A stretch of DNA of 33,876 nt from Candidatus Parcubacteria bacterium (GTDB lineage Bacteria; Patescibacteriota; Minisyncoccia; Phycocordibacterales; CALRHW01). Location: NCBI GenBank assembly GCA_009691505.1, contig SICJ01000003.1, positions 1 to 33,876 on the forward strand. Direction: 5' to 3'. A model generated the notes under the pieces. It saw nothing but the letters and a program-made list of their open reading frames with translations, was not told where the DNA came from and made no database searches. Positions 7,108 through 29,489 of this stretch are shown here, one piece after another (the stretch's first letter is position 1; every line of letters begins with the position of its first letter). The translations under genes were made by a program, and so were the position numbers.

Positions 7108-7455
7108 TTATACAAATTCTATTACGGCCATAGGCGCGCGGTCGCTTACTCTGTTTCCAAGCTTTATAATGCGTGTGTATCCACCTTTTCTTTCTTTATA
7201 TTTTGGTCCAAGCACATCTACAAGCTTTTTTGTAGCGATGTCACCTATTCTACTTGAAAGTAAACGGCGAGACGCTACTGAATTTGTCTTGCCTTGTGTA
7301 ACCATTTTTTCTACAACAGGACGAATAGCTTTTGCTTTTGTTTCTGTTGTTTTAATTTTCTCGTTTATTATAAGGGAAAGTACTAGAGATGCAACAAGAG
7401 CATTTCTTTGATTTTTTTCTCGGCCGAATTTCTTTTTTGAGCTGTGGTGTCGCAT
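7108..7455 (-). CDS. rplQ: 50S ribosomal protein L17
   Basis: MRH..KFGR, IKTTETKAK, GGYTRIIK; follows rpoA. Confidence 0.97.
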   Translation of the reverse strand: MRHHSSKKKFGREKNQRNALVASLVLSLIINEKIKTTETKAKAIRPVVEKMVTQGKTNSVASRRLLSSRIGDIATKKLVDVLGPKYKERKGGYTRIIKLGNRVSDRAPMAVIEFV

Positions 7456-7470
7456 ATTATTACTTTAGAT

Positions 7471-8427
7471 TTACTTTAGAGTAACGCCAATATCCTTTAA
7501 CATTTTTTTAATCTCTGTAACACCTTTTGTGCCAAGACCCTCTATTTCTGTAACGTCTTTTTCTTTCTTTCGCACAAGTCCGCCGACAGTTCGAATATTT
7601 GCAGAAGTCAAAGCGTTCATTGTGCGAGCTGAAAGGTTTAGAGATTCTATTCTAGTTTTCAAAAATTCTGGATCAAGGTCTTTTTTATCATCACCTTCAC
7701 CTTCGCTCTCTTTTTGTATTTCAGGCATTTCCTCTTCTTTAAAACCGATAATCGCCTTTAGCTGATTGATAGTTATTTCAATAGCTTTTGAAAGAGCATC
7801 GTGAGGAAGCATCGTGCCGTCTGTTTCTATAGAAATACGAAGACGATTGAAATCTGTTCTGTCACCGACGCGCATATTTTCAACTTCGTAACTCACTCTT
7901 TTGATAGGAGAAAAAACTGCATCAAGAGCAATACTACCGATGTCTACACGATTTTTTTGGATAACTTCTTTTGAAACATAGCCAAGACCTTTTTCTACCA
8001 GAAGCTCAATGTTGAGCTCAGCATTTTTGTCTGTAATAGTAGCAATAACAAAGTCAGGGTTGAGTACTGAAATCTGTCCAGTCGCTTTAATATCTTTTGC
8101 TGTGACTTCTTGCACGCCTTTTACTTTTAGAGTCAAAGTCTGTGGCTCGTCAGAGTGCATAGCGATGCGCACCTTTTTTAGATTGAGCAAAATTGTGATG
8201 ACGTCTTCTTTTATTCCATCAAGAACAGAAAACTCGTGACTTACGTCATTTATTTTTACAGAAGTAATGGCCGCACCAGGAAGAGATGACAAAATTATTC
8301 TACGTAGAGAGTTGCCGAGAGTGTGGCCGTATCCAGGATAAAGTCCGTCTATTTCATAAATCGCCGAAAAATTATCTTCGGATACAATCTTTGGCTTTGA
8401 AGGCAATACAATGCTGTGATGAACCAT
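7471..8427 (-). CDS. rpoA: RNA polymerase alpha subunit
   Basis: GYGHTLGNSLRRIILSSLPG, VENMRVGDRTDFNRL, alpha-CTD (LSARTMNAL). Confidence 0.98.
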   Translation of the reverse strand: MVHHSIVLPSKPKIVSEDNFSAIYEIDGLYPGYGHTLGNSLRRIILSSLPGAAITSVKINDVSHEFSVLDGIKEDVITILLNLKKVRIAMHSDEPQTLTLKVKGVQEVTAKDIKATGQISVLNPDFVIATITDKNAELNIELLVEKGLGYVSKEVIQKNRVDIGSIALDAVFSPIKRVSYEVENMRVGDRTDFNRLRISIETDGTMLPHDALSKAIEITINQLKAIIGFKEEEMPEIQKESEGEGDDKKDLDPEFLKTRIESLNLSARTMNALTSANIRTVGGLVRKKEKDVTEIEGLGTKGVTEIKKMLKDIGVTLK

Positions 8428-8451
8428 AATGATTTTATTATTTATTAAAAA

Positions 8452-9069
8452 TTATCTACTATAAAATTCTATAACTGAATTTAAATCAAACAAAAGTTCC
8501 CCTTGATCCATTTTTGGCATACCTTGAACTTCTATTTGCTTCTTGCTTGCGTCTACTTTGAGCCATGAAGGCGCTGTTTTTGCCTGTAGACGCTCTTCTA
8601 GACCCACAAACAAGGTTTTCTTCATACTGCCGTCTCTGAGCGTAATAACGTCTCCCACAGACACACTAAAAGACGGAATATTTACGATACGTCCGTTTAC
8701 TTTTATATGATTGTGCGAAACTATCTGACGAGCGAGTGGTCGAGTATGTCCAAAACCTCCACGAAGCACGGCGTTGTCTAAACGTCGCTCTAGAAGCTCG
8801 TAGAGTCCGCCGACTTTATTTGTGCCCTGTGCTGCGAGAGATTTTTTAACGTAATTTGAAAATTGTTTTTCTGTAAGTAAATACGTGAAGCGCGCTTTTT
8901 GCTTCTCATTCATTTGAACACCGAAATCTGTCTTTTGCTTTGGCCCACGTCCTTTTCCGACAGTTTTTGTTTTGCGTGTTTGAGACAGAGCGTATTTCTG
9001 AGTTTGAGTTTTCTCAAACACGGGTGCGCCGAGTCGTCTTGCTATTTTGTATCTTGGTCCGATAATCAT
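8452..9069 (-). CDS. rpsD: 30S ribosomal protein S4 (no zinc-ribbon cysteines)
   Basis: GPRYKIARRLG, EKQKAR, LERRLDN, ARQIVSHNH, IEFYSR. Confidence 0.97.
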   Translation of the reverse strand: MIIGPRYKIARRLGAPVFEKTQTQKYALSQTRKTKTVGKGRGPKQKTDFGVQMNEKQKARFTYLLTEKQFSNYVKKSLAAQGTNKVGGLYELLERRLDNAVLRGGFGHTRPLARQIVSHNHIKVNGRIVNIPSFSVSVGDVITLRDGSMKKTLFVGLEERLQAKTAPSWLKVDASKKQIEVQGMPKMDQGELLFDLNSVIEFYSR

Positions 9070-9098
9070 ACCTTTTGTTATTACTGTAATTTATAATA

Positions 9099-9533
9099 TT
9101 AAACTCTACGTGGCTTCGGCGGTTTTGGTCCGTTGTGCGGAACAGGCGTCACGTCTTTTATTGATGAAATTGTAATTCCCTTTGCAATAAAACCTCGTAT
9201 CGCAGATTCTCGACCAGAACCTACTCCTTTTACTACAACAGCGACTTCTTTTATGCCGATAATCTGCGCTTTTGCATTTAAAGTTTCGCCGATTTTTGCC
9301 GCCGCAAAGGGTGTCCCCTTTTTTGCGCCACGGAAACCAAGCGAACCACTTGAAGACCAGCACAAAGTGTTGCCTTTTACGTCTGTGAGAACAACCTTTG
9401 TATTATTGTATGTTGATTGCACATACAAAATACCGGTTTCTATTTTCTTTTTTGAAGACGCTACTACCGCTGATTTTTCTTCAGTATTAGCTACTTCTGT
9501 TTCTCCTTTTTTTACGATTCGTTTCTTTCCCAT
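9099..9533 (-). CDS. rpsK: 30S ribosomal protein S11
   Basis: STYNNT, GFRGAKKGTPFAA, DVTPVPHNG. Confidence 0.98.
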   Translation of the reverse strand: MGKKRIVKKGETEVANTEEKSAVVASSKKKIETGILYVQSTYNNTKVVLTDVKGNTLCWSSSGSLGFRGAKKGTPFAAAKIGETLNAKAQIIGIKEVAVVVKGVGSGRESAIRGFIAKGITISSIKDVTPVPHNGPKPPKPRRV

Positions 9534-9538
9534 TTTAA

Positions 9539-9919
9539 TTATTTTTTATCTACCGCACGTTTTCCACTTCCCATCGTCTTGCGAACGTTTCCGCGACGTG
9601 TGCGGGAATTGGTTTTTGTGCGCTGACCTTTTGAAGGAAGTCCGCGAGCGTGTCGTGTGCCTCTGTATGTTTTTATATCTTTTAGACGCTTTATGTTGCC
9701 GGCGACTTCTCGTTTTAGATCACCTTCAATTTTAAAGCGTTCTATAATACCTCGGATTTTGTTTTCATCTTCTACTGAGAGGTCTTTTGGTTTTTTACCA
9801 AATTCTATCTTTGCTTCTGTTAAAATCTTGTGTGCGAGAGGTCGTCCAATACCATAGAGCGTTGTAAGCCCAATTTCTAATCTTTTTCCTTCTGGAATTG
9901 TAATACCTAAAATTCTCAT
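9539..9919 (-). CDS. rpsM: 30S ribosomal protein S13
   Basis: LTTLYGIG, IEGDLKRE, YRGTRHARGLP..GQRTKTNSRTR. Confidence 0.98.
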   Translation of the reverse strand: MRILGITIPEGKRLEIGLTTLYGIGRPLAHKILTEAKIEFGKKPKDLSVEDENKIRGIIERFKIEGDLKREVAGNIKRLKDIKTYRGTRHARGLPSKGQRTKTNSRTRRGNVRKTMGSGKRAVDKK

Positions 9920-9933
9920 AAATTATTTATATA

Positions 9934-10050
9934 TTATCCTTGTCGCTGTTTATGGCGTGGGTTACTTTTACATATCACATAGACGTATCCTTTTCTTCGG
10001 ACTACACCACATTTAGAACAGATTTTTTTTACTGATGATCTTACTTTCAT
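9934..10050 (-). CDS. rpmJ: 50S ribosomal protein L36 (zinc-ribbon form), missing from the ORF track
   Basis: Manual translation gives [38 protein letters not shown] (38 aa), located between infA and rpsM. Confidence 0.97.
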
Positions 10051-10066
10051 TATTCAAATTTAACCC

Positions 10067-10285
10067 TTATAAACGTTTCACTATTCTGCCCTTACCGCCA
10101 TATTGATCTAGCTCCACAATAACTTTATCTCCGATAAGTACGCGAATTCTGTGAAGTCGCATCTTACCCGCAAGGTATGTAAGCAACTCATCTTCTTGGC
10201 CTTCCAATTTAACCTTAAAAAAGGTATTTGGCAAGGCTTCCGTGACAATTCCGTTCAGTTGACTCTTTTCTTTGTTATTATCCAT
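10067..10285 (-). CDS. infA: Translation initiation factor IF-1
   Basis: GIVTEALPNTFFKVKL, YLAGKMR, GDKVIVEL, KGRIV. ATG at 10285. Confidence 0.96.
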   Translation of the reverse strand: MDNNKEKSQLNGIVTEALPNTFFKVKLEGQEDELLTYLAGKMRLHRIRVLIGDKVIVELDQYGGKGRIVKRL

Positions 10286-10307
10286 TACAATATAAGCAAT
10301 GCGGAAC

Positions 10308-10335
10308 ATTCTAGCAAAATACGGAATTTAGTCAA
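10308..10335 (-). promoter_or_regulatory. Putative sigma70 promoter of the infA-rpmJ-rpsM operon
   Basis: Minus strand reads TTGACT-16 nt-TAGAAT with a TG extension, about 22 nt upstream of the infA ATG. Confidence 0.6.
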
Positions 10336-10343
10336 CCCCCGTA

Positions 10344-11681
10344 TCATTGCGTTGTTACTTTAAAACTAATTTTACTCGTTTTGCTCGGAAAAGACATGTT
10401 CCAAAAAGGCGTAATGTTTGCTTTGGCACTTGCGATGGCAGGATACGAAGAAATGACTGAGCCGAGCTCTTTTTTTGATTTTCCCACCAAATTTTTCTTT
10501 ATTTGTTCTTGATCAAAAATCCATACAAAGTGTGCTTGTCCTTTTAAAATAAAAGGTATGTCTTTGTCGCCAGAAATAGGCAAGGCTACATTTGGTGGTA
10601 AGACAAATTCTAAGTCTGAAAGATTTGAAACATACACCTCACCTTCTTTTGAAGACAGTTTTGTGTTTGAAGCGAGCTCTCTATTTAAAACATTTTCATC
10701 TAAAATAATTCCGCTTATTGTTCCTTTTTGATTTACCGTAACAGAAGTGTCTTTAGTGTCTGTCTGAGGTGCTGATTCAAATGTAAAAAAAGTTGCGTTT
10801 GGATAAAGAATAAAGTTGTCTGGGATTTGCGATTTTACTTCTATTATAAGCTGGTCTTTTAATTGTGCTTTTAATTCGTCCTCTGTTTTTGAAAGTGTAC
10901 TTGATGTTATTTTTTTAACTTTCCCAGAAAAACCTCCTTGCATCGGCGTGTCGGAACGAGCAAAAATATTGGTAAATTTTGGATCACCTTTAAATCCCGG
11001 TATGGTGAAGTCAGAAAGTGGAATGTTATAATCTGTGCCCGCTTTTTCCGCGGTAACTGTTGCGGTGATGCTTCCTGCTACTATTTCGCCAGCTTTTGTG
11101 CTGTAACCGGGGACAATCACTGCACTGTCTATTTTATATATGAGTCCAGACGAAGTCTGAAAACGCGTTCCAGTGATAAGTCTTTGAGTTGTTTTACTAT
11201 TTTTATTAAAAATAACTATTCTTCCGCTCGCTTTTTTATCTATTTGCTCTTCATCTTTTGCTTCTACCGTTTTTCCTAGAACTTTTGAAAGTGTAACTGT
11301 TTGAAAACCAAGATCGAGCGACTCTGGAGATTTTTTTGCCACAAGTGGCGCTTTTATATCTACTGTTTGCGTTTTTGTTGTGATTTCAACCTCTGCACTT
11401 ACAAAAAGAAAGGAGAAAACAAAACCGACAACAAGTAGACACAGCACACCCGTAATCCAAACACTTTTGTGTGGAAACTTACCTTGGGTTTTTTGAGACG
11501 GAGAAAAATAATTGTCATGCGCTGGTTCTATATTTTTTTTCAGCGGTTTTCTACTATCAAGTACAATAATGTCTTCTGTAGAAGTGTGCGTACCCCCACC
11601 GCGTCTTTTCCTAGATAGTGGAATATTTCTTATTGATTTATTTTCTGGAGGTAAAACATCTTGTAAAATTTTCTTTGCCAT
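10344..11681 (-). CDS. Single-pass membrane protein with a baseplate-J-like beta-rich domain
   Basis: Disordered N-terminus, one TM helix (WITGVLCLLVVGFVFSFLFV), then GTRFQTSSGLIY...ITATVTAEKAGTDYNI, resembling the baseplate J/gp47 barrel motif. Confidence 0.65.
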   Translation of the reverse strand: MAKKILQDVLPPENKSIRNIPLSRKRRGGGTHTSTEDIIVLDSRKPLKKNIEPAHDNYFSPSQKTQGKFPHKSVWITGVLCLLVVGFVFSFLFVSAEVEITTKTQTVDIKAPLVAKKSPESLDLGFQTVTLSKVLGKTVEAKDEEQIDKKASGRIVIFNKNSKTTQRLITGTRFQTSSGLIYKIDSAVIVPGYSTKAGEIVAGSITATVTAEKAGTDYNIPLSDFTIPGFKGDPKFTNIFARSDTPMQGGFSGKVKKITSSTLSKTEDELKAQLKDQLIIEVKSQIPDNFILYPNATFFTFESAPQTDTKDTSVTVNQKGTISGIILDENVLNRELASNTKLSSKEGEVYVSNLSDLEFVLPPNVALPISGDKDIPFILKGQAHFVWIFDQEQIKKNLVGKSKKELGSVISSYPAIASAKANITPFWNMSFPSKTSKISFKVTTQ

Positions 11682-11721
11682 ATTAAATATTAGTATACAC
11701 TAAAAAATATTATTTGAAATA

Positions 11722-12936
11722 TTATTCATTGAACAACTTGTTGAAAAAGATACTTTCAAGCGCGAGAAACGGATCTCTGTCAGACTGCGCGTCAAACTCT
11801 ACAAACTGCGAAAGTTTTTCTTCATCTAAAAGAACCACTGGTATCGCTTGAAAATCTGCACTATTTTTTTGAGCGAGAGAAAGATTTTTTTTTATGGTGG
11901 AAATAAAAAGTGGCGCGACGTCGCTATCTACTGTGACAAATATTTTAGACGGTGTAGAACCTTTTGCAACATCTGAAAACGCTTTGAAAAAAAGGTCGCT
12001 CCATTCTCTAGAAACTCTTGCGCTCGCACTAGCCACAGATTTTGCACTTGCTTCTTCTATATGTCCGCGCGAATTCATTTTTATATAAGACAAAGCAATC
12101 TCTGGTAATACTTTGAGTTCTTCCGCTACTTGTTTTATAAGATGATTACGACCAAAAGGAAAAGATGTCGTTTCCATCAGTACGTGTTTTTCTACAGATG
12201 AAATGTCGGTGACTTCAGAGGAAATATCCATAAATACGTAGTCAGATTCATTTGAAAAAATATCACCAATAACGCTGTATTCTACTAAAGAAAAAGAAAA
12301 AAGTGCCAGATTTTTTGAATAAAAATATTTTCCAACGATATGCTCTATAGAAGTAGCGATTTCTTTTGAAATAAAACTAAGGAAAATCGCCAGCTCTATT
12401 TGGCGAGCGTTCTTTTGATATGGGTCTGTGGTATTGTAACCGTTTAATTTTGTCTGGATAATCCTTTTTTCCAAAATTTCAATATCTTTTTTTGACAGAG
12501 CACCTATTTTTCTCTCAGTAACTTCTTTTGTAAAAAGATCCACTTCGTGTTTAAGGAGAGAATCTATAAAATTTCTATTTATGAAAATAGGCTCATTATT
12601 TTCTATTTTAAGTATTTTTGTTTTTGAGATATACCAAGGTGAAGACAATACACAAAAAGTCTGTCTAACTTTTTCCTTTTCCAAGCCAAGCTTACGCATG
12701 TGTTCAAGTCCTTCTTTGGCAACACAAGCGAGTGTTTCTTCTAAAATTTTTAAAGCTAATGCAGATAATTTATTTTTAAATACTTTTTCTGAGATTGCGA
12801 GCGGAAGCCTTTTTGAGTAAATAAGTCTAGGAGCATTATTTGTTTTAAAAAGCACAAGAGCGGCAGCGACGCTTCCGTTGCCAAAATCAATAACCAAATT
12901 TACTTCTTGTTCTAATTTTTCTTTAAAAAAAGACAT
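11722..12936 (-). CDS. Divergent FtsA/PilM-like actin-fold protein
   Basis: N-terminal VIDFGNGSV phosphate-1-like motif and a second degenerate motif FMDISSEVTDIS followed by FPFGRNHLIKQVA. Confidence 0.65.
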   Translation of the reverse strand: MSFFKEKLEQEVNLVIDFGNGSVAAALVLFKTNNAPRLIYSKRLPLAISEKVFKNKLSALALKILEETLACVAKEGLEHMRKLGLEKEKVRQTFCVLSSPWYISKTKILKIENNEPIFINRNFIDSLLKHEVDLFTKEVTERKIGALSKKDIEILEKRIIQTKLNGYNTTDPYQKNARQIELAIFLSFISKEIATSIEHIVGKYFYSKNLALFSFSLVEYSVIGDIFSNESDYVFMDISSEVTDISSVEKHVLMETTSFPFGRNHLIKQVAEELKVLPEIALSYIKMNSRGHIEEASAKSVASASARVSREWSDLFFKAFSDVAKGSTPSKIFVTVDSDVAPLFISTIKKNLSLAQKNSADFQAIPVVLLDEEKLSQFVEFDAQSDRDPFLALESIFFNKLFNE

Positions 12937-12952
12937 TGCTCTTTTATTATAC

Positions 12953-14746
12953 CTAAATGATTGCTTTTATTCTACGTACTCCTGCGGAAACTGCTTCTTC
13001 TTTTATTATTTTAAAGTGCCCAAGCTCTGAGGTATTTTGCACGTGCGGTCCGCCACAAAATTCTTTTGAATAAGCATTCTCTAACTCGTCGCCGATGAAA
13101 TAAATACTTACTTCGTCGCCGTATTTTTCGCCAAAAAGATGTCGCGCGCCGGTTTTTTCTGCTTGTGCTTTTGGTAGCACGACTTTATTTACTGGGATTT
13201 TTGCGCTTATTTTTTCATTTACAATATCTTCCACTTTCGTTTTTTCTTCGTCTGTCATTTTTTGCGTATGAGAAAAATCAAAACGTAAACGCTCTGGCGT
13301 TATATTTGAACCTTTTTGCTCTACATGCTCGCCGAGTACATCATGAAGTGCTTGATGAAGAAGATGAGTCGCTGTATGAAGTCGCACCGACATTTCGTCT
13401 GTACTAGCAAGTCCACCCTTAAATTTTTGCTCAGCTCCTGCGCGAGAAAGATTTTGATGATTTTTTTGTTCTTCTAAAAATTCGCCAATATTTACTGACA
13501 TATTATTTTCACGAGCAAAATCTATAGTCATTTCAATCGGAAAACCCATTACAGAAGAAAGGTGGAAAGCGTCTTTTCCAGAAATCTCTTTTTTAAAAGT
13601 AGCGAGAATTTTTAATCCTTGAGGAAATATTTTTTTAAACTTTTCTACTTCTTCATTTATCGTCTTTTCTATCGTTTCAACTTTATTTTGAATTTCGGGA
13701 TACGTTTGAATATATGTTTCCGCTACAGACGCAACAAAATCATGCACGACCTCAGGAGAAATATCTTTTTTGTCAGTATGGAAAATCGCTCGACGAAGAA
13801 GTCGCCTGAGCACGTATCCTCTGTCTGTGTTGGACGGGACAACTCCATCACCTATAATAAAAATAGAAGTGCGGACATGGTCGGTGATTATTTTTTGCGA
13901 TTTATTTTCGCTTGCAATTTTGCCCGCAAGTTTCATCAAGTCCGCAAATAAATCTATCTCAAAAAAGTCGCGGGTATTTTGCATTACCATTGAAAGTCGC
14001 TCCAAGCCCGCGCCAGTGTCCACGTTTCTCTGCGAAAGTTTACCGACCACTTTTCCATCGCGCTTTTCATATTCCATAAAAACGTCATTCCATATTTCCA
14101 CAATCTGTTGTGATTTATTTTCAACTAAAAAATCTGTTTTGGACATTCCGTCGGTCAAAGTGCCTGTTAAATCATAAAACATTTCTGTATCTGGACCACA
14201 AGGGCCATTGTCACCAGCGCTCCACCAATTGTCCTCAGCGGACATAAAATAAATTCTCTCGCCTGCGACGCCAGCCTGCGCAAAAATATTTTTCCAAATC
14301 TCAAAAGACTCATCATCACGCGGGGCATTATCATCACCCTCAAAAACAGTAACGTAAAGTCGGCGTGGATCTAAACCAAGCCCGCTTTCTTTTGATGTTA
14401 AAAATTCAAAACTCCATTCTATCGCCTCTTTTTTGAAATAATCTCCGAAAGACCAATTGCCGAGCATTTCAAAAAAAGTAGCGTGTGTGTTGTCACCCAC
14501 GTCATCTATATCTACAGTCCGCAAACATTTTTGAACACTTGCGACACGAGTGCCAGATGGATGTTTTTTGCCTAAAAGATAAGGAATGAGCGGTTGCATT
14601 CCAGCGGAATTAAAAAGAGTTGCATCTGTGACACCTTTTTCGTCAGACGTGACAATAGAAACAGAGGGCAAAATAGCGTGCTTTTTACTCTCAAAAAACT
14701 CTTTAAATTTACGACGGATTTCCTGTGCTGTCATTTGTGATTGCAT
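12953..14746 (-). CDS. alaS: Alanyl-tRNA synthetase, short form (editing domain kept, C-Ala domain absent)
   Basis: LFNSAGMQPL, HATFFEMLGNWSFGDYFK, NVDTGAGLER, editing motifs HTATHLLH and CGGPH. The protein ends right after GVRRIKA. Confidence 0.97.
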   Translation of the reverse strand: MQSQMTAQEIRRKFKEFFESKKHAILPSVSIVTSDEKGVTDATLFNSAGMQPLIPYLLGKKHPSGTRVASVQKCLRTVDIDDVGDNTHATFFEMLGNWSFGDYFKKEAIEWSFEFLTSKESGLGLDPRRLYVTVFEGDDNAPRDDESFEIWKNIFAQAGVAGERIYFMSAEDNWWSAGDNGPCGPDTEMFYDLTGTLTDGMSKTDFLVENKSQQIVEIWNDVFMEYEKRDGKVVGKLSQRNVDTGAGLERLSMVMQNTRDFFEIDLFADLMKLAGKIASENKSQKIITDHVRTSIFIIGDGVVPSNTDRGYVLRRLLRRAIFHTDKKDISPEVVHDFVASVAETYIQTYPEIQNKVETIEKTINEEVEKFKKIFPQGLKILATFKKEISGKDAFHLSSVMGFPIEMTIDFARENNMSVNIGEFLEEQKNHQNLSRAGAEQKFKGGLASTDEMSVRLHTATHLLHQALHDVLGEHVEQKGSNITPERLRFDFSHTQKMTDEEKTKVEDIVNEKISAKIPVNKVVLPKAQAEKTGARHLFGEKYGDEVSIYFIGDELENAYSKEFCGGPHVQNTSELGHFKIIKEEAVSAGVRRIKAII

Positions 14747-22849: not shown

Positions 22850-23992
22850 CTAAATCCTAAACTCCACCACGTCTCCATCTTTCACAATGTATTCTTTTCC
22901 TTCGGTGCGGAGGAGGCCTTTTTCGCGGGCGAGCGCAAGCGAGCCCGCTCCTAAAAGCGCGTCGCAAGCTATCACTTCCGCACGAATAAATTTATCTTTA
23001 AAATCTGTGTGGATCGCAGTTCCGGCAATCGGCGCAGTTGAGTTGCGTAAAATCGTCCACGCACGCGACTCGTCTTCGCCAGTTGTAAAATATGTAATGA
23101 GGTCCAAAAGTTCATAACCTTTTGTAATCAAATTATTTATTCCGTCGTCTTCCCCGCCGAGTTCTTTTCGGAAAGTTTCTTTTTCGGTTGCAGTTAAATC
23201 TTTCAGCTCTTGCTCAATTCCCGCATCCACAATTACATAAAGTGACTTCGTATCACTAAAAAATTTCAGTAATTTCGTAAATCGCTCGTCCTGCTTGCCG
23301 TTTACGTCTGGCTTTCCGTCCGCGCCGATTTTTTCATCCAAATTCCTCGCTCCACCTTTTTTATTTAAAACATAAAGAATCGGCTTCATTGTAAGGAGCT
23401 GAAGTCCTTTTATATACGGCAACTCAAGCTCGTTTAAAGTAGCCTCTTGTGCGAGTCGCCCAGCGAGAAGCAACGTGTGCACTTTTTCCAAAGCTCCGTG
23501 CTCAATCACCGCTTCTTTCGTCCCCTTTTTCATTTCTCTATCTACGTTGCCAAGACGTTTTTTTACAGTATCAGTGTCCGCCAAAATAAGTTCTAGATTT
23601 ATAATCTCCACATCATGAAGCGGATCTATTTTTCCGTCCACATGTATCACATTGTCATCTTCAAAAATCCTCACCACTTCCGCGATAGCGTGCACCTCGC
23701 GAATATTACTCAAAAATTTATTTCCCAAACCTTCACCTTCCGATGCGCCTTTTACGATACCAGCAATGTCTACAAATTCTATCGCGGCGGGAATTGTTTT
23801 TGCGGATTTACTAAATTCTGAAAGTTTCCAAAGCCTGTCATCTGGCACAGCCACAACACCCACAGACGGATCAATGGTGCAGAAAGGATAATTCTCCGCT
23901 GGAACGGATTTTTTAGTGAGAGCGTTAAATAATGTGGATTTGCCAACATTTGGGAGACCGACGATGCCGATTGATAGTTTTGTACTTGACAT
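22850..23992 (-). CDS. ychF: Ribosome-associated ATPase YchF (Obg family); N-terminus supplied by the integrated element
   Basis: GIVGLPNVGKSTLFNALT, NYPFCTIDP, DIAGIVKGAS.GEGLGNKFL, TGS domain (EGKEYIVKDGD). Confidence 0.97.
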   Translation of the reverse strand: MSSTKLSIGIVGLPNVGKSTLFNALTKKSVPAENYPFCTIDPSVGVVAVPDDRLWKLSEFSKSAKTIPAAIEFVDIAGIVKGASEGEGLGNKFLSNIREVHAIAEVVRIFEDDNVIHVDGKIDPLHDVEIINLELILADTDTVKKRLGNVDREMKKGTKEAVIEHGALEKVHTLLLAGRLAQEATLNELELPYIKGLQLLTMKPILYVLNKKGGARNLDEKIGADGKPDVNGKQDERFTKLLKFFSDTKSLYVIVDAGIEQELKDLTATEKETFRKELGGEDDGINNLITKGYELLDLITYFTTGEDESRAWTILRNSTAPIAGTAIHTDFKDKFIRAEVIACDALLGAGSLALAREKGLLRTEGKEYIVKDGDVVEFRI

Positions 23993-24426
23993 GATAATTT
24001 GATGCTACTGGAATATAACCATAGATTTGTAATTGCTCTTTATTAGCTACAATCTTGTCTAGAACATTCATCATAATGCCTTTTTTTACCACAAAACTCA
24101 AGTTATTAATCTCATTCTTCACCTCCTCAGTAAACTTATCAATTTCATTTTGATTAGGGAGATTTGTTTCTGTCCGTAATATTTCCTGTTTAGCGTCAGA
24201 AATTTGGAATTCTAATGCCGACATCTTTTCCTTAATCGGATCTACATACTCTTTGAGCTGGTTAATTGTAAAAACTCCTGAACCGTAAGCTTTATTGTAT
24301 CTATCTTCTTGTGTCTTAAGATTACTTATTTCCTTTTGGAGAAATGGAGTGTCACTCGCGGAAACTGTGTTTTTTAAATTCTTGCTATTAATCCAGCGAT
24401 CTAATTGTTTTCTCATTTATACTCAT
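23925..24426 (-). pseudogene. C-terminal remnant of a large serine recombinase/integrase
   Basis: Coiled coil (LQKEISNLKTQEDRYNKAYGSGVFTINQLKE) and LSFVVKKGIMMNVLDKIV..LQIYG, typical of large serine recombinase C-termini. Runs across the att site into ychF. No catalytic YxRVS domain. Confidence 0.75.
23957..23978. repeat. att site (ychF-proximal copy)
   Basis: accgacgatgccgattgatagt, matching 26529-26550 at 19 of 22 positions. Confidence 0.8.
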
Positions 24427-24477
24427 AACATTATTATAACACACTTTTATGTAATTTCAGTTTATATTTTAGTAATC

Positions 24478-24978
24478 TTAATCCTTATTTACAATCATTT
24501 CCTTCACTTTTTTCTTATAATCCTCAAAGCTTTCCATGTTCATTTCTTTTCTACGTTTTTCAATGTTTGACTCATCTTCAAGATCAAAAAAGGTAACATT
24601 TTTATGTTCAATTCTATATTGTGTCCCATATAATTGCAGTTGTTTATTTAAAATTCTTACTCTATCAATCAAATATGCTAAATCACTTTTTATAATTTCT
24701 TTATCAGTTTTATTATTAAATAAATCTATTGTCTCCTGAAGATACGCTGTCTCACCTGAGTGTTGAATTACTAAAAAGGCCGCTCTGTAAGCTTTCTCAG
24801 AGGAAACATTTATAAAAGGAAAACCATTTTCTTTGATGAATTGTTTAATGAATATAAAATTATCTTTTTGGATCTGTACCAGATTATCTTCAGATATCTT
24901 ATCTTCTCTAAATAATTTTATATTTGTTTGGTCCTTGTCCAGCAGCGATTCAAGCTGTGAAATTAAAATTTGATTCAT
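24478..24978 (-). CDS. DUF6624-like protein
   Basis: DQ.., IKENGFP, AAFLVIQHS, LAYLIDRV..QLYGTQY, RRKEMNM motif pattern. Very AT-rich coding sequence. Confidence 0.75.
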   Translation of the reverse strand: MNQILISQLESLLDKDQTNIKLFREDKISEDNLVQIQKDNFIFIKQFIKENGFPFINVSSEKAYRAAFLVIQHSGETAYLQETIDLFNNKTDKEIIKSDLAYLIDRVRILNKQLQLYGTQYRIEHKNVTFFDLEDESNIEKRRKEMNMESFEDYKKKVKEMIVNKD

Positions 24979-25001
24979 ACTACTACTATATTATAAAAAT
25001 T

Positions 25002-25039
25002 AAAAAAAGTAGACCCCCCGAGAAAATCTCAAGGGGGTC
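25002..25039 (-). terminator. Intrinsic terminator of the ATP-grasp/precursor operon
   Basis: Minus strand GACCCCCTTGAGA-TTT-TCTCGGGGGGTC followed by TACTTTTTTT. Confidence 0.85.
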
Positions 25040-25063
25040 ATGAAGGGTTGAAGCGCGGCGTGC

Positions 25064-25256
25064 TCAGATAGTATCCGAGTCGCTCGAGCCTTGATCCAGG
25101 GTGTCAGTTTCCGCGACGATGTCGGGGGTACGGTTGATCGATCACTTGGACGCCGTGAACTCTCTCAGCGTGCAAAAAGGTGATCGGCTCACCGGAGGCA
25201 CTTTTCTGGGTTATCTGGCCCTTTTTTTTGGGTGGGTCTAGGACTGCAGCATTCAT
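25064..25256 (-). pseudogene. Graspetide (ATP-grasp RiPP) precursor peptide, frameshifted by a GATC duplication at 25136-25143
   Basis: AAAGGAGG RBS and ATG at 25256. As given, it reads 50 aa and stops at 25104. Removing one GATC gives MNAAVLDPPKKKGQITQKSASGEPITFLHAERVHGVQVINRTPDIVAETDTLDQGSSDSDTI* (62 aa), ending just before the terminator. Confidence 0.75.
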
Positions 25257-25312
25257 GGGGACATGCCTCCTTTCAATTGTGTTAGTTGTTGTACTTACCC
25301 GTAATTAATGTA

Positions 25313-26293
25313 TCAACTTGCTAAGAATTTTGCAAGAGCTGTCGATATGGGTAATCCAGCCACCAATTCAGATGGCCCCCACTGTCCTTGGGGGTTTACT
25401 TCAAAGAAACAGTATTCTCCTGCTTCCGTGATGCAGAGATCTGCCACACCGAACCTCAATCCAAGACCTTGAACCACTTTTATCAGTTTTCTTTGAACGT
25501 CAACTGGTAGCTCGTATGGCTTGTAAATCCTTTCGAGCTTGTGGTTTCTCCAATCAAGGTTGTCGTCACCTGCTCCCAAATCCCTTTCGTGAGTAATTGA
25601 GACAGTAAAGACTTCATCGCCCACAATCGTTGATCTGAGATCGACTTTGTTGAGGATTGCTTCTTGGAAAATCACAGGGCAGACTTTCACTTGTTCAACC
25701 ACCTTAAGGATGGTTTCCTCATCAATGACCCGAGTATAGATTGTTCGGTTTCCTCCCTCTTTTTCGTTTGCACGATAGAGACAAGTTCCGACCGGCTTCA
25801 TAATCATACTCATGCCATGATTATTCCGAATGAATATTGACACACTAAGCGGATCATTCGAGATTACGGTCTTTGGAATCCTCAAACCACAATCCTGCGC
25901 GACCTTAAGCTGTAGGGGTTTGCTGTTTGCAATTCTGGTGCTGTCTGGGTCTGAGACCCACTTAACATCAGACGGCAAAAGGTAGAAAAGAGACCGCACA
26001 AACATGTCGGATTCCATCCGAATGTATTGACTGAGTGAGTCCTGTGCTTCTTTCTTGAATTTTCCCATAGGTCTGCGCCACCAAACTGATTTGACATTGT
26101 CTTGATTGAAAGCTCCCGTTCTTTGCTCAAAAAGAAACGAAAGTTCTGATGAGTAGCCAATGGTCCCGTAGCATTCCTTCGGAAACAGACTTAGATCGAG
26201 AAGAGAATATGTTTCCCCAATCTCATCAAGTCTTTTCATCAAAAGTTTGGACGTGCCATCCTCAGAATGAGATATAACTAGTATTTGTTTCAT
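25313..26293 (-). CDS. MvdC/MvdD-like ATP-grasp RiPP macrocyclase (graspetide synthetase)
   Basis: ILVISHSED, VKSVWWRRP, ANSKPLQLKVAQDCGLRIPKTVISND, IMKPV, PVIFQE, DLRSTIVGDEVF, DWR, LGLRFGVADL, FFEVNPQGQW. AAGGAG RBS. Confidence 0.88.
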   Translation of the reverse strand: MKQILVISHSEDGTSKLLMKRLDEIGETYSLLDLSLFPKECYGTIGYSSELSFLFEQRTGAFNQDNVKSVWWRRPMGKFKKEAQDSLSQYIRMESDMFVRSLFYLLPSDVKWVSDPDSTRIANSKPLQLKVAQDCGLRIPKTVISNDPLSVSIFIRNNHGMSMIMKPVGTCLYRANEKEGGNRTIYTRVIDEETILKVVEQVKVCPVIFQEAILNKVDLRSTIVGDEVFTVSITHERDLGAGDDNLDWRNHKLERIYKPYELPVDVQRKLIKVVQGLGLRFGVADLCITEAGEYCFFEVNPQGQWGPSELVAGLPISTALAKFLAS

Positions 26294-26327
26294 TTAAATT
26301 CTCCTTGTTGTTGATGTTCTTCTGACC

Positions 26328-26359
26328 TTGACACTATATAATTATTGTTCTGATGTCAA
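26328..26359 (-). promoter_or_regulatory. Putative promoter of the ATP-grasp operon
   Basis: Minus strand TTGACA followed by TATAGT (15-nt spacer) or TAGTGT (17-nt spacer). The whole site is bracketed by the inverted pair TTGACA...TGTCAA. Confidence 0.45.
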
Positions 26360-26480
26360 ATGAGTTCAAATTAAATCTGTGCGGAAACTTTATATCGGTA
26401 TTATTAAAAGATTATTCAAATCAGGTATCTCCCCCCTTTTTTTTATGGATTTCCAAATAGCTTTTGAGGTGGTGGAAGTT

Positions 26481-26555
26481 TTATGACAAAACTAAATGGA
26501 ACAAGTTTGGCAAAATGTCGGTTTGTGAACCAACTATGCCGATGGATAGTGACAT
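26481..26555 (-). pseudogene. Displaced original 5' end of ychF, containing the distal att site (26529-26550)
   Basis: Translates to MSLSIGIVG|SQTDILPNLFHLVLS*. The first nine residues are a canonical YchF N-terminus, then similarity stops abruptly. Confidence 0.85.
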
Positions 26556-26586
26556 AATTTTAATTTAAATTCAGTGTTCCTTACTA

Positions 26587-27426
26587 TTACATAATGTACA
26601 TATCCTGTCCAAAATTGCCCGTGCCTACGTACTCCGCTTCGCCACGCAAAATTTTCTCAAACGGCTGGCAGGCAAAACATCCCTGCGCGCCTTGCGGACA
26701 CTCGAAAACTTTTTCTTCGCGGGCTTTTTTTATTTGTTTTGCGATGGCAAGGACTTTTTCGCGAGCGACCTCAATATCAGGCAAGGGCTTTACAACAGGC
26801 TCGTCATCTCTATCCAAATACCAATACAAAGCGCCAGTCACTTTACGATTTTGCAAAGCATCTAAAAGTAACAAATAAATCGGAAGTTGAAGCGAGTCTT
26901 GTGTTTCCTCGTGTTTGCCTGTTTTAAAATCAAAAATTTTTACGCTGTCGTCTGCCTCAATATATTCTAGCCAGTCTATGTATCCGCACAAAATAATATT
27001 TTCTTCTTCGGAAAGAAAAAAGTTTGGAGGCATTCCGTTGTGGCCTTCTTTTAGACGAACCGTCTTTTTGAAAATTGGGCCGGGATTTTTTATTACGTGT
27101 TTTATCATTGTAAGTCCACGTTCTTTTGCCGTAGCTTCTTCTTCGCTCGTTTTAAATCCACCAATTTTGCCAGATATTTTTTTCCACGCAATTTCAAAAT
27201 CTGCGACCAAGTCGTGCTTTAAGCGCTCCTCCAACGGAATATTTTTTAGCGGTTCAATAGTATTGTGCACCGCACTGCCGAGCGACATTGCCGAAGATAC
27301 CATGCCGATTTTTTTGCCAGATTTTGGATCTTTATAAACATTCCGCAAAAAATACGAACGCGGACATTTCAAAAAATCCCCGATGGACGAGTGCGAAACC
27401 CACACTGATTTGTATTTATCGGGCAT
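26587..27426 (-). CDS. PD-(D/E)xK nuclease, RecB/Cas4/AddB-like
   Basis: SHSSIGDFLKCPRSY, LGSAVH, GYID, IFDFKTG, QLPIY, C-terminal C-x6-C-x2-C. Confidence 0.88.
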   Translation of the reverse strand: MPDKYKSVWVSHSSIGDFLKCPRSYFLRNVYKDPKSGKKIGMVSSAMSLGSAVHNTIEPLKNIPLEERLKHDLVADFEIAWKKISGKIGGFKTSEEEATAKERGLTMIKHVIKNPGPIFKKTVRLKEGHNGMPPNFFLSEEENIILCGYIDWLEYIEADDSVKIFDFKTGKHEETQDSLQLPIYLLLLDALQNRKVTGALYWYLDRDDEPVVKPLPDIEVAREKVLAIAKQIKKAREEKVFECPQGAQGCFACQPFEKILRGEAEYVGTGNFGQDMYIM

Positions 27427-27440
27427 GTTTTTTAGTTAAA

Positions 27441-29111
27441 TTATCGTTCTGCGGTTTTTCCGTCTTGCACGCTTTGTGCGACTAAGTTTGTAAAAAATTT
27501 CCATATTATATACATTGCTTCAGTATCAAGTTTACAATATTCAAGCATTTCTTGCTTCTTTTTTTCCACCGCCGAGCCGACGATTTCGCCTTTCAAAATC
27601 TTCCGATAGGCCTCTATCGCGTCCGTGCCAGATTTTACGGCGAGCACATTATAATCCAAAACATTTTTTGGAAGTGCGAGCAAATCTTTTATCACAGGCA
27701 AAACTTTTTTTATAGACGAGCTTCCTTTAAATCCGTGATGCACATAATGCTGATTGTCTACAATGTCCATCAAATCATAAGTGCGATTGATAACACTATG
27801 TAAAAATTCAAAACGCAGAGGCACAAGCTCGGCGAGCTCGCGGTTACGCGAATTCTCAAATTTTTTATACCAAGAAATAACACTCCCTGTCTCTCCGATA
27901 TTCGTGCACAGACTTTCTACAAGTCGCTCCGCCGGATCTCCATCAAGAATCAAACTTTCAAAATGCTTCGGCGGAAGTCCTGCCTTAAAATCTTCGGCGT
28001 TTAAAACGTGAAGGGAATATTGAAAAACGATGTGTTGATAAGGGTGGTATCCGTCAAAAAAAGGAATAGCATGCGGATAAGTTTCATAGTCCAAAAAATA
28101 AAGCGGAAATTGAAGAGAGCTCAGCTCAGCTTTGATTGCATAGATATCCCTAATCGGTTTTTTAGATTTGTGGACAGCAACCTGATTTTGCTTTCTAGGT
28201 TTGCTCGGTTTTTGTCCCTCTTTCGCTTCTTTTATTTTTGGCAACTGATCTTCACGCACTTTTTCAATATGTAAAATTCCTTCGTCCAACAACTCTTTCA
28301 ACAATTTTTTACTATTCCCAATTCTGTTGATGTCGTGAACGCTGTATTCTGGCACATCTTTGTTGATGTACGAAAAAGCTGTGCAATGTGAGCTTCTTCC
28401 TCGGTAGTAGCAAGGACACGGGCGAGTTGGCATTTCTGCAGGCGACAAAAGATGGTGGGCTTCCTCCATTTCAATTAAAACTCTGGGCATCAAATCATCT
28501 ATCGCTACTGTCTTGTCTTCGGTTATAAAAAGTTGATTTTCTGAAAAATCTAAATCGCCCGCTTTTTTATATTTTTTATTTAAACGAATTAAATATTTTT
28601 TATTTATCTTCACACCACAGTTTTCAAAAACATTTGCTTGAAAAGCTAGGTCGTATTCAAATTGTAATTCTCTGCCAGATGATTTTTTTGGCGCAGGCTT
28701 TTCGTTTTTTCCTTCTTCATCATCAGCCACTTCACTTTCCTCGTCCGCAGTCGTAGAAGACATTTTTATTTCGCACATATCATAAGCGTCTGCACTAGCA
28801 TTCCATACCAAAATATCTGTCGCCGCCAAATATTTTTCTGTCGCAAAAACCGCTTGAAAAATAACTGACGCTTTTTGTTCCACAAGGGTTTTTGTAAGTT
28901 CTTGCGCACCGTCACTTCTTTTTTCTACAAGATAACCGTCTGGGAACATTCCGCGAGCTATTTCTTCCACTTCATTTCCCATTACGGTAAGCGATTTTTC
29001 AAAATCAGAAACTTCAAATTTTGAATACTGCGACGGCTCGTGTATTTTTACCCATACATTTTGTGGGCAGTTACGATACAATATAAAATCAGTTTTTGTG
29101 AGAGGTTTCAT
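27441..29111 (-). CDS. DUF2779-type protein (N-terminal PD-(D/E)xK-like domain plus C-terminal RNase H/exonuclease-like domain)
   Basis: LTKTDFILYRNCP, TDIL..EIKMS, DLAFQ, FPLYFLDYET, FQYSLH, GSSSIKKVLP, LEYCKLDT. Confidence 0.82.
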   Translation of the reverse strand: MKPLTKTDFILYRNCPQNVWVKIHEPSQYSKFEVSDFEKSLTVMGNEVEEIARGMFPDGYLVEKRSDGAQELTKTLVEQKASVIFQAVFATEKYLAATDILVWNASADAYDMCEIKMSSTTADEESEVADDEEGKNEKPAPKKSSGRELQFEYDLAFQANVFENCGVKINKKYLIRLNKKYKKAGDLDFSENQLFITEDKTVAIDDLMPRVLIEMEEAHHLLSPAEMPTRPCPCYYRGRSSHCTAFSYINKDVPEYSVHDINRIGNSKKLLKELLDEGILHIEKVREDQLPKIKEAKEGQKPSKPRKQNQVAVHKSKKPIRDIYAIKAELSSLQFPLYFLDYETYPHAIPFFDGYHPYQHIVFQYSLHVLNAEDFKAGLPPKHFESLILDGDPAERLVESLCTNIGETGSVISWYKKFENSRNRELAELVPLRFEFLHSVINRTYDLMDIVDNQHYVHHGFKGSSSIKKVLPVIKDLLALPKNVLDYNVLAVKSGTDAIEAYRKILKGEIVGSAVEKKKQEMLEYCKLDTEAMYIIWKFFTNLVAQSVQDGKTAER

Positions 29112-29234: not shown

Positions 29235-29489
29235 TTATTGTCTCTCGAGCTTGAAATTTGCAAGCGCTTCGTCAGAAAGCTTGCGATTAATTTCATCACT
29301 AATTGCATAAGCAATGCGATGAACTTCAATCTTGGCTTTTATAACTGTGCGCTTTTCCAACAACTCCGGAGTCCAATCTTTTAGACCTCCGTAATTCTCA
29401 ATTGACCGCCTTGCTTCTTCACAAAGATTTACCAGCTCTAGATTCAGCTGGTACAATCTAGCAAGATGATCTTCACTAGATTTACTCAT
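29235..29489 (-). CDS. Small helical hypothetical protein
   Basis: 84-aa ORF with a near-perfect SD (AAAGGAGGTG, 29494-29503) and a downstream hairpin. Confidence 0.7.
   Translation of the reverse strand: MSKSSEDHLARLYQLNLELVNLCEEARRSIENYGGLKDWTPELLEKRTVIKAKIEVHRIAYAISDEINRKLSDEALANFKLERQ

Follow-up and report, generated by a model that had tools for sequence, protein, structure and literature searches.

Probable remnant of a large serine recombinase element at the start of ychF in a Candidatus Parcubacteria genome

The window analysed here is a stretch of 33,876 nt (contig SICJ01000003.1 of GenBank assembly GCA_009691505.1) from the Candidatus Parcubacteria genome G000, a metagenome-type assembly of 466 kb in 24 contigs that is 93.6% complete. 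Coordinates are positions in this window, and all features described in it lie on the minus strand. Within the first codons of the gene ychF we found an island of 2,572 bp, which we regard, with a probability of about 0.9, as the decayed remnant of an integrative element that was moved by a large serine recombinase (LSR) and integrated in the ychF start. The attP of this element, ~50 bp long and situated inside the 3' part of its own LSR gene, would have recombined with an attB consisting of the first ychF codons. The crossover would have taken place at the GG of the Gly6 codon, with catalysis by the LSR as deduced from the sequence. The native start (MSLSI plus GG) would thereby have become an orphan 2.57 kb upstream, fused at attL to the last 31 codons of the LSR gene. 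At attR the P arm, a mimic of the ychF start, would have furnished ychF with a replacement start codon and eight codons from the element, the LSR frame now terminating inside ychF. Decay, presumably later, would have removed the first ~385 codons of the LSR gene with the catalytic, recombinase and zinc-ribbon domains, and would have frameshifted a graspetide precursor gene carried by the island.

Two ychF starts and a recombinase relic

The ychF gene of the window is intact and encodes 380 aa (22850-23992; TIGR00092, E = 1.8e-122; Pfam YchF-GTPase_C and MMR_HSR1), but its start is chimeric. The N-terminus of the working protein, MSSTKLSIGIVG, begins at 23992, and the gene overlaps the final 68 nt of a 163-aa open reading frame (ORF) at 23925-24416. 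The orphan native start, ATG TCA CTA TCC ATC GGC ATA GTT GG (MSLSIGIVG), is located at 26529-26555, 31 nt past the stop codon of the gene for a PD-(D/E)XK (Cas4-like) nuclease that flanks the island on the outside (26587-27426; PF12705, E = 1.5e-21). An earlier note made from the sequence alone had described both features, a working ychF starting from within a recombinase tail and an orphan start directly after the nuclease gene, and both were confirmed. The same was true of its count of matches: the two copies of the ychF start (23957-23978 and 26529-26550) are identical at 19 of 22 nt, and the differences (TCC/TCA, ATA/ATC and GTT/GTC) each fall on a third codon position. A third copy with up to three mismatches was not present in the window (mean of 0.00 in 100 shuffles), nor did searches of the window detect a second orphan start or an intact attP. 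The first 20 nt of the orphan are those of the genuine ychF start of another member of the genus, G003.

Genus members without the recombinase carry an uninterrupted site. Their ychF genes start with MSLSIGIVGLPNVG (MSLSIGIVG) in G002, MSLSVGIVG in G001 and MALSVGIVG in G007, and in G003 SLSIGIVG follows the ATG. When these four genomes were searched with the 163-aa ORF, no tail match was obtained, and each of them therefore presents the empty attB expected for an LSR element. The nuclease had no match in six of the seven other genus genomes, and the empty-site relatives also lack it. The earlier note had held that its proposal would fail if relatives without the cargo carried both copies of the start or if the 163-aa ORF had no recombinase homology; the recombinase-free relatives have the native start only, and the ORF is homologous to LSRs.

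The 163-aa ORF comprises the coiled-coil and C-terminal part of an LSR. It matched the integrase family phrog_95 of PHROGs with an E value of 4e-7 at profile positions 452-561 of 651, and tblastn with nine LSR frames aligned it to residues ~386-546 of LSRs of ~550 aa (29-51% identity, E = 1e-42 to 4e-15). Residues 1-385 of the same nine frames found nothing below E = 0.5 in the window, Pfam found no recombinase domain in the ORF, and a full-length LSR query against the whole 466-kb assembly, itself 93.6% complete, returned this relic as the sole match. The final 22 codons of the relic are ychF DNA read in another frame. The four full-size elements that were annotated encode an LSR with Resolvase, Recombinase and Zn_ribbon_recom domains, whereas the catalytic resolvase, recombinase and zinc ribbon domains that characterise an LSR are missing from the window element. 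As the catalytic part is gone and only ~160 C-terminal residues are left, the window element is, judging from its sequence, a relic of the LSR family and not a working member, and would be unable to move by itself. The recombinase homology proposed earlier was thus borne out; the gene itself has to be redescribed as a truncated, catalytically dead relic.

Two hybrid sites bound the island. The attR site occupies 23943-23992 in an alignment of 13 attR sites anchored on GG, with a P arm at 23969-23992 that starts with ATGTC and holds the new ychF start codon, GG at 23967-23968 and a B' arm at 23943-23966. The attL site at 26515-26564 was placed by the family alignment and by the identity of the orphan to the G003 start over 20 nt; it consists of a B arm at 26541-26564 (orphan ATG at 26553-26555), GG at 26539-26540 and a P' arm at 26515-26538 ending in GACAT. 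The distance from centre to centre (23968-26540) gives the island length of 2,572 bp. Codons 1-8 of ychF (MSSTKLSI) are island DNA and the native gene continues from Gly9. The translation start of ychF now lies on element DNA, as the earlier note had proposed, since the start codon and codons 1-8 are in the P arm (23969-23992). Hybrid attL and attR sites with a short shared centre and arms of different origin, as expected for an LSR element, are therefore present.

A promoter-like site, CTGAAA-16-TATAAT with an upstream TG (extended -10), was found in a consensus scan at 24433-24460 (10 of 12 matches), just upstream of the relic ORF and ychF. Its position fits transcription of ychF from island DNA, as far as a sequence pattern can suggest this. 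The 3' end of the LSR gene most likely persists because the ychF start, and probably the promoter, are now there. No RNA data were listed among the sequencing runs that hold the island.

A family of recombinase islands at ychF

The 163-aa ORF was used to search 401 genomes of the order, and the tail was detected in 19 of them. Nine of these hits were open frames of 489-572 aa and seven were clear relics of 63-163 aa (G000, G004, G379, G141, G343, G238 and G254). The tail matches in G108, G026 and G154 were weak, covering only the ychF-overlapping part or carrying stops, and were not counted as relics. In 16 of the 18 loci other than the window, ychF starts at the end of the tail match; of the remaining two, L025 reaches a contig end and L031 shows no ychF.

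The earlier note had suggested a survey of recombinases adjoining ychF in Patescibacteria. A scan of named genomes with seven full-length LSR queries yielded 80 loci at 47-100% identity, partly overlapping those of the order survey. The ychF start falls within the final ~70 nt of the LSR gene in 64 of the 80. Of the 16 others, six break off at a contig end, which leaves 74 informative loci, 64 of them abutting ychF. The record titles of the loci include Paceibacterota, Nomurabacteria, Wolfebacteria, Gracilibacteria and Levybacteria among many Patescibacteria lineages. Together with the empty sites in the genus and the tail homology, these loci support the claim that ychF is the attB target. 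Most ychF genes linked to an LSR start with MS-x-x-x-L-(S/A/T)-(I/V)-GIVG, three residues beyond the native MSLSIGIVG, and a shorter start, MSSLSIGIVG, was also found among them.

The far end could be located for 12 elements, including that of the window, and in each an orphan native start (M-x-L-S-I-G) is followed by the P' motif (GAACACAAC.CGACAT). Six more regular-expression matches to the orphan start lacked the P' motif and were taken as chance. The 12 elements measure 2,572, 5,696, 8,183, 9,413, 9,953, 10,628, 11,114, 11,210, 14,227, 16,549, 16,970 and 17,631 bp from centre to centre.

No ychF is present at ten informative LSR loci, whose labels are Bacteroidota, Verrucomicrobiota, Alphaproteobacteria or Omnitrophota. 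Nine of the ten have a free attP, with the P arm, GG and P' arm contiguous at the 3' end of the LSR gene (ATGTC-N19-GG-N19-GACAT), and the P arm still codes for a ychF-like start. The dyad-symmetric attP of ~50 bp that is typical of LSR elements was thus seen in its unrecombined form at nine loci. In these free forms the LSR frame extends 13-48 codons past the attP centre with the motif IPFxFxIKLPPP.., often ending in QKLFGNP. This tail also stands behind attL in 11 integrated elements besides that of the window. The window has a displaced C-terminal tail of the recombinase, readable in the LSR frame across attL and ending in ..AKLVPFSFVIKLPPPQKLFGNP and a stop (26443-26544), and the frames of integrated LSR genes end in ychF DNA read out of frame. 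From these sequences the attP sits inside the LSR gene, and integration would therefore have moved the last 31 codons of the enzyme to the far junction.

The unrecombined modules of LSR gene and attP (L058, L060, L066, L070, L081, L082, L111, L117 and L118) are on contigs of 85 kb to 2.25 Mb labelled Omnitrophota, Bacteroidota, Verrucomicrobiota, Bradyrhizobium and Alphaproteobacteria. Those that were annotated (L066, L081 and L117) lie among genes of mobile elements, such as an IS110 transposase, a type IV coupling protein and ArdC.

The crossover was examined by scoring symmetry around possible centres. In the natural attP sites (inner 19 nt of each arm) the score was 103/171 at GG and 36-58 at other shifts, with the peak at GG in 9/9; in reconstructed attP sites it was 78/144 at GG and 32-44 at eight other shifts, with the peak at GG in 6/6 elements. 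Furthermore, GG is the sole central sequence shared in five of 13 attL/attR pairs, in which both flanking bases differ. On these two grounds the crossover is placed, as an assignment from sequence comparison, at positions 1 and 2 of the Gly6 codon (23967-23968 and 26539-26540). The earlier note had pointed to an ACTAT-N8-AT(A/C)GT dyad and to TC at its centre as the crossover dinucleotide. The dyad is indeed found in both copies of the ychF start, but across the family it is not the best centre of symmetry. TC as a centre scored 44/144 in the reconstructed and 54/171 in the natural attP sites, and its bases agree between attL and attR in five of 13 elements and differ in eight; the family evidence points to GG, two bases to the right.

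The cargo of four full-size elements was annotated and found to be unrelated among them. The element of G202 carries restriction-modification and helicase genes; that of G092, copper ATPases, Dsb proteins, a sortase, FtsW and a tyrosine integrase; that of G045, DUF2726, Schlafen-type, nuclease and AAA_25 genes; and that of G385, a second serine recombinase, ParB, a reverse transcriptase with bAvd and a glycosyltransferase. With the different interior of a sister genome described below, this upholds the suggestion that the site is a cargo hotspot in the lineage. Two of these cargoes show recognisable modules: the reverse transcriptase and bAvd-like accessory gene of G385 (L039, about 12648-14029) form the signature of a diversity-generating retroelement, and G092 (L040, about 7133-13357) has a copper-resistance block with two P-type ATPases, a cupredoxin and DsbD-like genes.

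In a separate observation on the target gene, ychF of L019/L046, L047, L102, L105, L106, L108 and L121 matched the window protein at residues 1-135/139 and 284-380 only. The gap between the two matches is ~120-130 nt, and these loci therefore seem to have a short ychF missing most of the central helical domain.

Cargo cassette, sister genome and population data

The cargo of the window island is a graspetide cassette. Its first gene (25313-26293) encodes an ATP-grasp peptide maturase of the microviridin/graspetide type, 326 aa long. The protein matched PF21068 (MvdD pre-ATP-grasp) with an E value of 1.9e-8 and 34.8 bits, above the cut-off of 27, as expected of an MvdC/MvdD maturase; TIGR04187, TIGR04185 and TIGR04184 matched with E values of 1.8e-58 to 1.4e-49, yet below their curated cut-offs. 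The second gene, at 25064-25256, is a graspetide precursor gene that three-frame translations showed to be frameshifted. A leader ORF of 50 aa (25104-25256) contains EPITFLHAE, the core (..DIVAETDTLDQGSSDSDTI then stop; ..DTLDQGSSDSDTI) is open in another frame (25064-25141), and the two frames overlap at a C5 run (25124-25128). Contigs of three metagenome runs (X1, X2 and X4, introduced below) cover the place of the frameshift and show no indel.

A precursor in one reading frame, as expected in a graspetide cluster, is therefore missing from the window and present in relatives. Intact precursors with the same leader and core lie 3' of the ATP-grasp gene in L127-L130 and L132, as ORFs of 46-53 aa, and in L133, as a longer ORF. 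Across L127-L133 the leader is PITFLHAE and the core ..DT..SGDSDT(I/N), the listed ORF of L131 containing the core only. No match to the 50-aa ORF was found in Pfam and NCBIfam, and it was identified through the genes next to ATP-grasp homologues. The third gene (24478-24978) encodes a DUF6624 protein of 166 aa (PF20329, E = 1.3e-11), and a DUF6624 homologue was found downstream of the ATP-grasp gene in nine of 11 related loci. A terminator-like hairpin with a T run (10 pairs, six of them G-C) follows the precursor gene at 25014-25036. The G+C content is 0.27-0.34 across the LSR relic and the DUF6624 gene, 0.43-0.50 across the ATP-grasp and precursor genes and ~0.40-0.46 in the flanks.

Homologues of the ATP-grasp gene were detected in 32 of the 401 order genomes, G000 included, and in none of the six other genus members. 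The ATP-grasp, precursor and DUF6624 genes form a conserved three-gene cassette that is scattered in the order (L127-L133, L136 and L137), and none of the related cassette loci adjoins ychF or an LSR tail. The window is a case in which such a cassette travels as island cargo in tiny genomes. According to the available text of PMC13097080, DUF6624 co-occurs with graspetide groups 18, 20, 23 and 42. As in the clusters outlined there, the maturase, a short precursor and DUF6624 stand side by side in the window; the window differs in that a relic island carries the cassette and in the frameshift of the precursor. A literature search on graspetides in Patescibacteria returned nothing.

In the sister genome G004 the nuclease is 99% and ychF 95% identical to those of the window. 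Its orphan start is the same, and the two sequences part just past GG (after ATCGGCA). The ychF of G004 starts with MSYSVLQIGIVG, behind a shorter and different LSR tail (45% identity to the window tail over 74 aa). DNA homology to the window is limited to 26504-28926 (93% of nt) and 22851-24104 (86.6%); the interior is unrelated, and contains a secreted-protein gene broken by a contig gap, the locus being split over two contigs.

The island was also found in contigs of four freshwater metagenome runs (X1-X4) from three studies. Both junctions were bridged, attR by record 17 of X3, and attL by record 16 of X2 and record 23 of X3. The contigs aligned to the window showed no joints, indels or variant letters, though the runs consist of contigs, which cannot show that excision is absent; parts of the island left uncovered in X3 and X4 carry no interpretation. 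Run X1 may be the source sample of the window. In X1 the breaks between unitigs coincide exactly with the limits of the shared core (23971 and 26536), and contigs identical to the flanks have a depth of 13.3-14, about twice the 6-7.9 of island contigs. A 52-nt unitig of X1 (depth 3.6) aligns to 23942-23978 with one mismatch, its other 15 letters being unaligned and not seen. Its length and position are those calculated for an empty attB junction in a graph of k = 31, which hints at an allele of this kind, and the population may be polymorphic for the island.

Alternative explanations and related systems

Some observations weigh against an LSR-moved element in the ychF start. The link to an LSR comes from homology of the coiled-coil tail and from the relatives, the window being without a catalytic domain, and the putative promoter is a pattern match. 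The tail-bearing locus L031 has no ychF beside it, and the informative locus L088 has neither ychF nor a strict attP. Binning errors may account for the Gammaproteobacteria, Bacteroidota and Omnitrophota labels of some short contigs whose ychF is Patescibacteria-like. As both junctions were aligned at the GG of the Gly codon, the GG identity of 13/13 is given by construction and only the neighbouring mismatches are informative. In addition, later mutations could blur the junctions, and the 8-nt core ATCGGCAT shared by the two junctions of the window would by itself be compatible with a TC crossover too.

The decayed LSR element may have become both locked in place and reusable, an extension that we put forward tentatively and with more doubt than belief. 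Integration would move the ychF start, and probably its promoter, onto element DNA, and the 3' end of the LSR gene could therefore no longer be lost. It would stay behind as a fossil, and the hybrid sites could be used again for the swapping of cargo in a single, integron-like slot. The order survey, with seven clear relics against nine full-length frames among the 19 tail hits, bears on this idea. If it were true, the graspetide cassette of the window and the secreted-protein gene of G004 would be swapped cargo, and the allele that seems to have an empty site, from the same water samples, would belong to this turnover.

A related explanation, which we consider unlikely, is that the island is not fully dead and that, attL and attR being intact, a related LSR with a directionality factor could excise or exchange it in trans, making the locus a platform for cassette exchange. 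Such exchange would account for the different interiors between the near-identical flanks of G000 and G004. G004 shares the flanks and both types of junction and has an unrelated interior, the flank contigs of X1 have a depth of 13.3-14 compared to 6-7.9 for the island, and the 52-nt unitig on 23942-23978 fits the geometry of an empty attB junction. However, the relic is the sole LSR match in G000 (93.6% complete), the letters of the unitig were not seen, the contig comparison showed no joints, and contig depth is a poor gauge of cell shares, in a run that may itself be the source sample. The same data would follow without excision from an ancestral empty allele or from independent integrations. 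The ends of the G000 and G004 islands (tail 45% identical over 74 aa) diverge far beyond their flanks (nuclease 99%), which fits two separate integrations.

The imperfect direct repeat of 19/22 nt at both ends resembles the core of a tyrosine integrase, and a defective pneumococcal prophage with a tyrosine integrase lies just upstream of ychF, as described in the available text of PMC6375853 and PMC8637289. That the duplicated ychF start is such a repeat, left by a tyrosine-recombinase island or prophage, the usual origin of such repeats in gene-restoring islands, and unrelated to the 163-aa ORF, is nevertheless very improbable. Pfam gave no Phage_integrase hit in the island, five of 13 elements share GG only, which fits the 2-bp crossover of a serine recombinase and not an overlap of 6-8 bp, LSR genes abut ychF in 64 of 80 loci, and the intact attP lies inside the LSR gene. 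It is equally hard to credit that the assembly is chimeric here or that the 5' end of ychF was duplicated locally, without any mobile element, for even though the window comes from a 24-contig metagenome-type assembly and the G004 locus is broken over two contigs, contigs of four runs from three studies bridge both junctions without differences, the same architecture occurs in dozens of genomes, and relatives have the empty site.

Well-known examples of LSR elements are phiC31, Bxb1, A118, TP901-1, SPbeta and SCCmec/Ccr. The islands at ychF agree with LSR elements in general in the make-up of the full-length relatives, with Resolvase, Recombinase and Zn-ribbon domains plus a coiled-coil tail, and in having a dyad attP of ~50 bp, a 2-bp crossover, no long direct repeat and a protein-coding gene as the target. 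Unlike LSR elements in general, they use the extreme 5' end of an essential-type gene and supply it with a start codon and eight codons, their attP is within the recombinase gene, and the window copy is without the whole catalytic part. Replacement of a 5' end has a parallel in SXT, which reportedly (Hochhut and Waldor 1999) gives prfC a new 5' end and promoter. For the position of attP a parallel is found in Myxococcus phage Mx8, the Int protein of which is a tyrosine-type integrase.

Integration by an LSR at ychF has already been published for pipolins, and the general idea is not new: according to the available text of PMC11551731, ychF is an integration site of LSR-encoding pipolins in Actinomycetota. 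These resemble the present islands in being borne by an LSR and in having variable, often defence-related cargo (PMC11551731). The host phylum is different, and the available text names ychF as the target with no position inside the gene (PMC11551731). No family-B DNA polymerase, the mark of a pipolin (piPolB), appeared in Pfam scans of the island genes of the window or of 64 ORFs from the four full-size elements, no dedicated piPolB search being made. Literature searches on ychF with attB or a serine recombinase, and on Patescibacteria or the candidate phyla radiation with a serine recombinase, returned no description of the family in Patescibacteria.

Other systems differ in the enzyme. As far as the available text of PMC2791158 goes, SXT/R391 integrates at the 5' end of prfC, and unlike the island it depends on a tyrosine recombinase, its attP and attB are almost the same in sequence, and it is a conjugative element of ~100 kb. 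Mx8 is the published precedent for an attP inside the integrase gene; as here, the attP lies within the integrase coding sequence and integration gives this gene a new 3' end (PMC6070905, available text). Here, however, the enzyme is an LSR and the displaced tail is left at attL, and the Mx8 target is not ychF (PMC6070905). The defective prophage PPH005 between dnaN and ychF in pneumococcus likewise has its integrase gene beside ychF and changes what drives ychF expression; unlike the island, it has a tyrosine integrase and 14-bp direct repeats and is inserted in the promoter region and not in coding DNA (PMC6375853 and PMC8637289, in the parts available).

The family offers Patescibacteria, for which hardly any genetic tools exist, a well-defined natural integration system with a known recombinase and an attP of ~50 bp. 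Its attB falls in a stretch (ychF start to P-loop) that is among the most conserved of a universal gene, which probably explains the broad host spread. It also illustrates how integration at the 5' end of an essential-type gene can occur without loss of that gene when the element brings along an imitation of the start within its own recombinase gene, and the window adds an end stage, a dead remnant of 2.6 kb on which the host gene still depends.

On the far side of attL, a gene for a DUF2779 protein (27441-29111) is located upstream of the nuclease gene. The pair (26587-29111) was not found in six of the seven other genus genomes, and in G001 and G002 a gene of ~100 aa directly upstream of ychF resembles, by eye, the 84-aa ORF at 29235-29489 of the window. 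For these two reasons the DUF2779 and nuclease pair has the appearance of another insertion, older than the island, next to this site.

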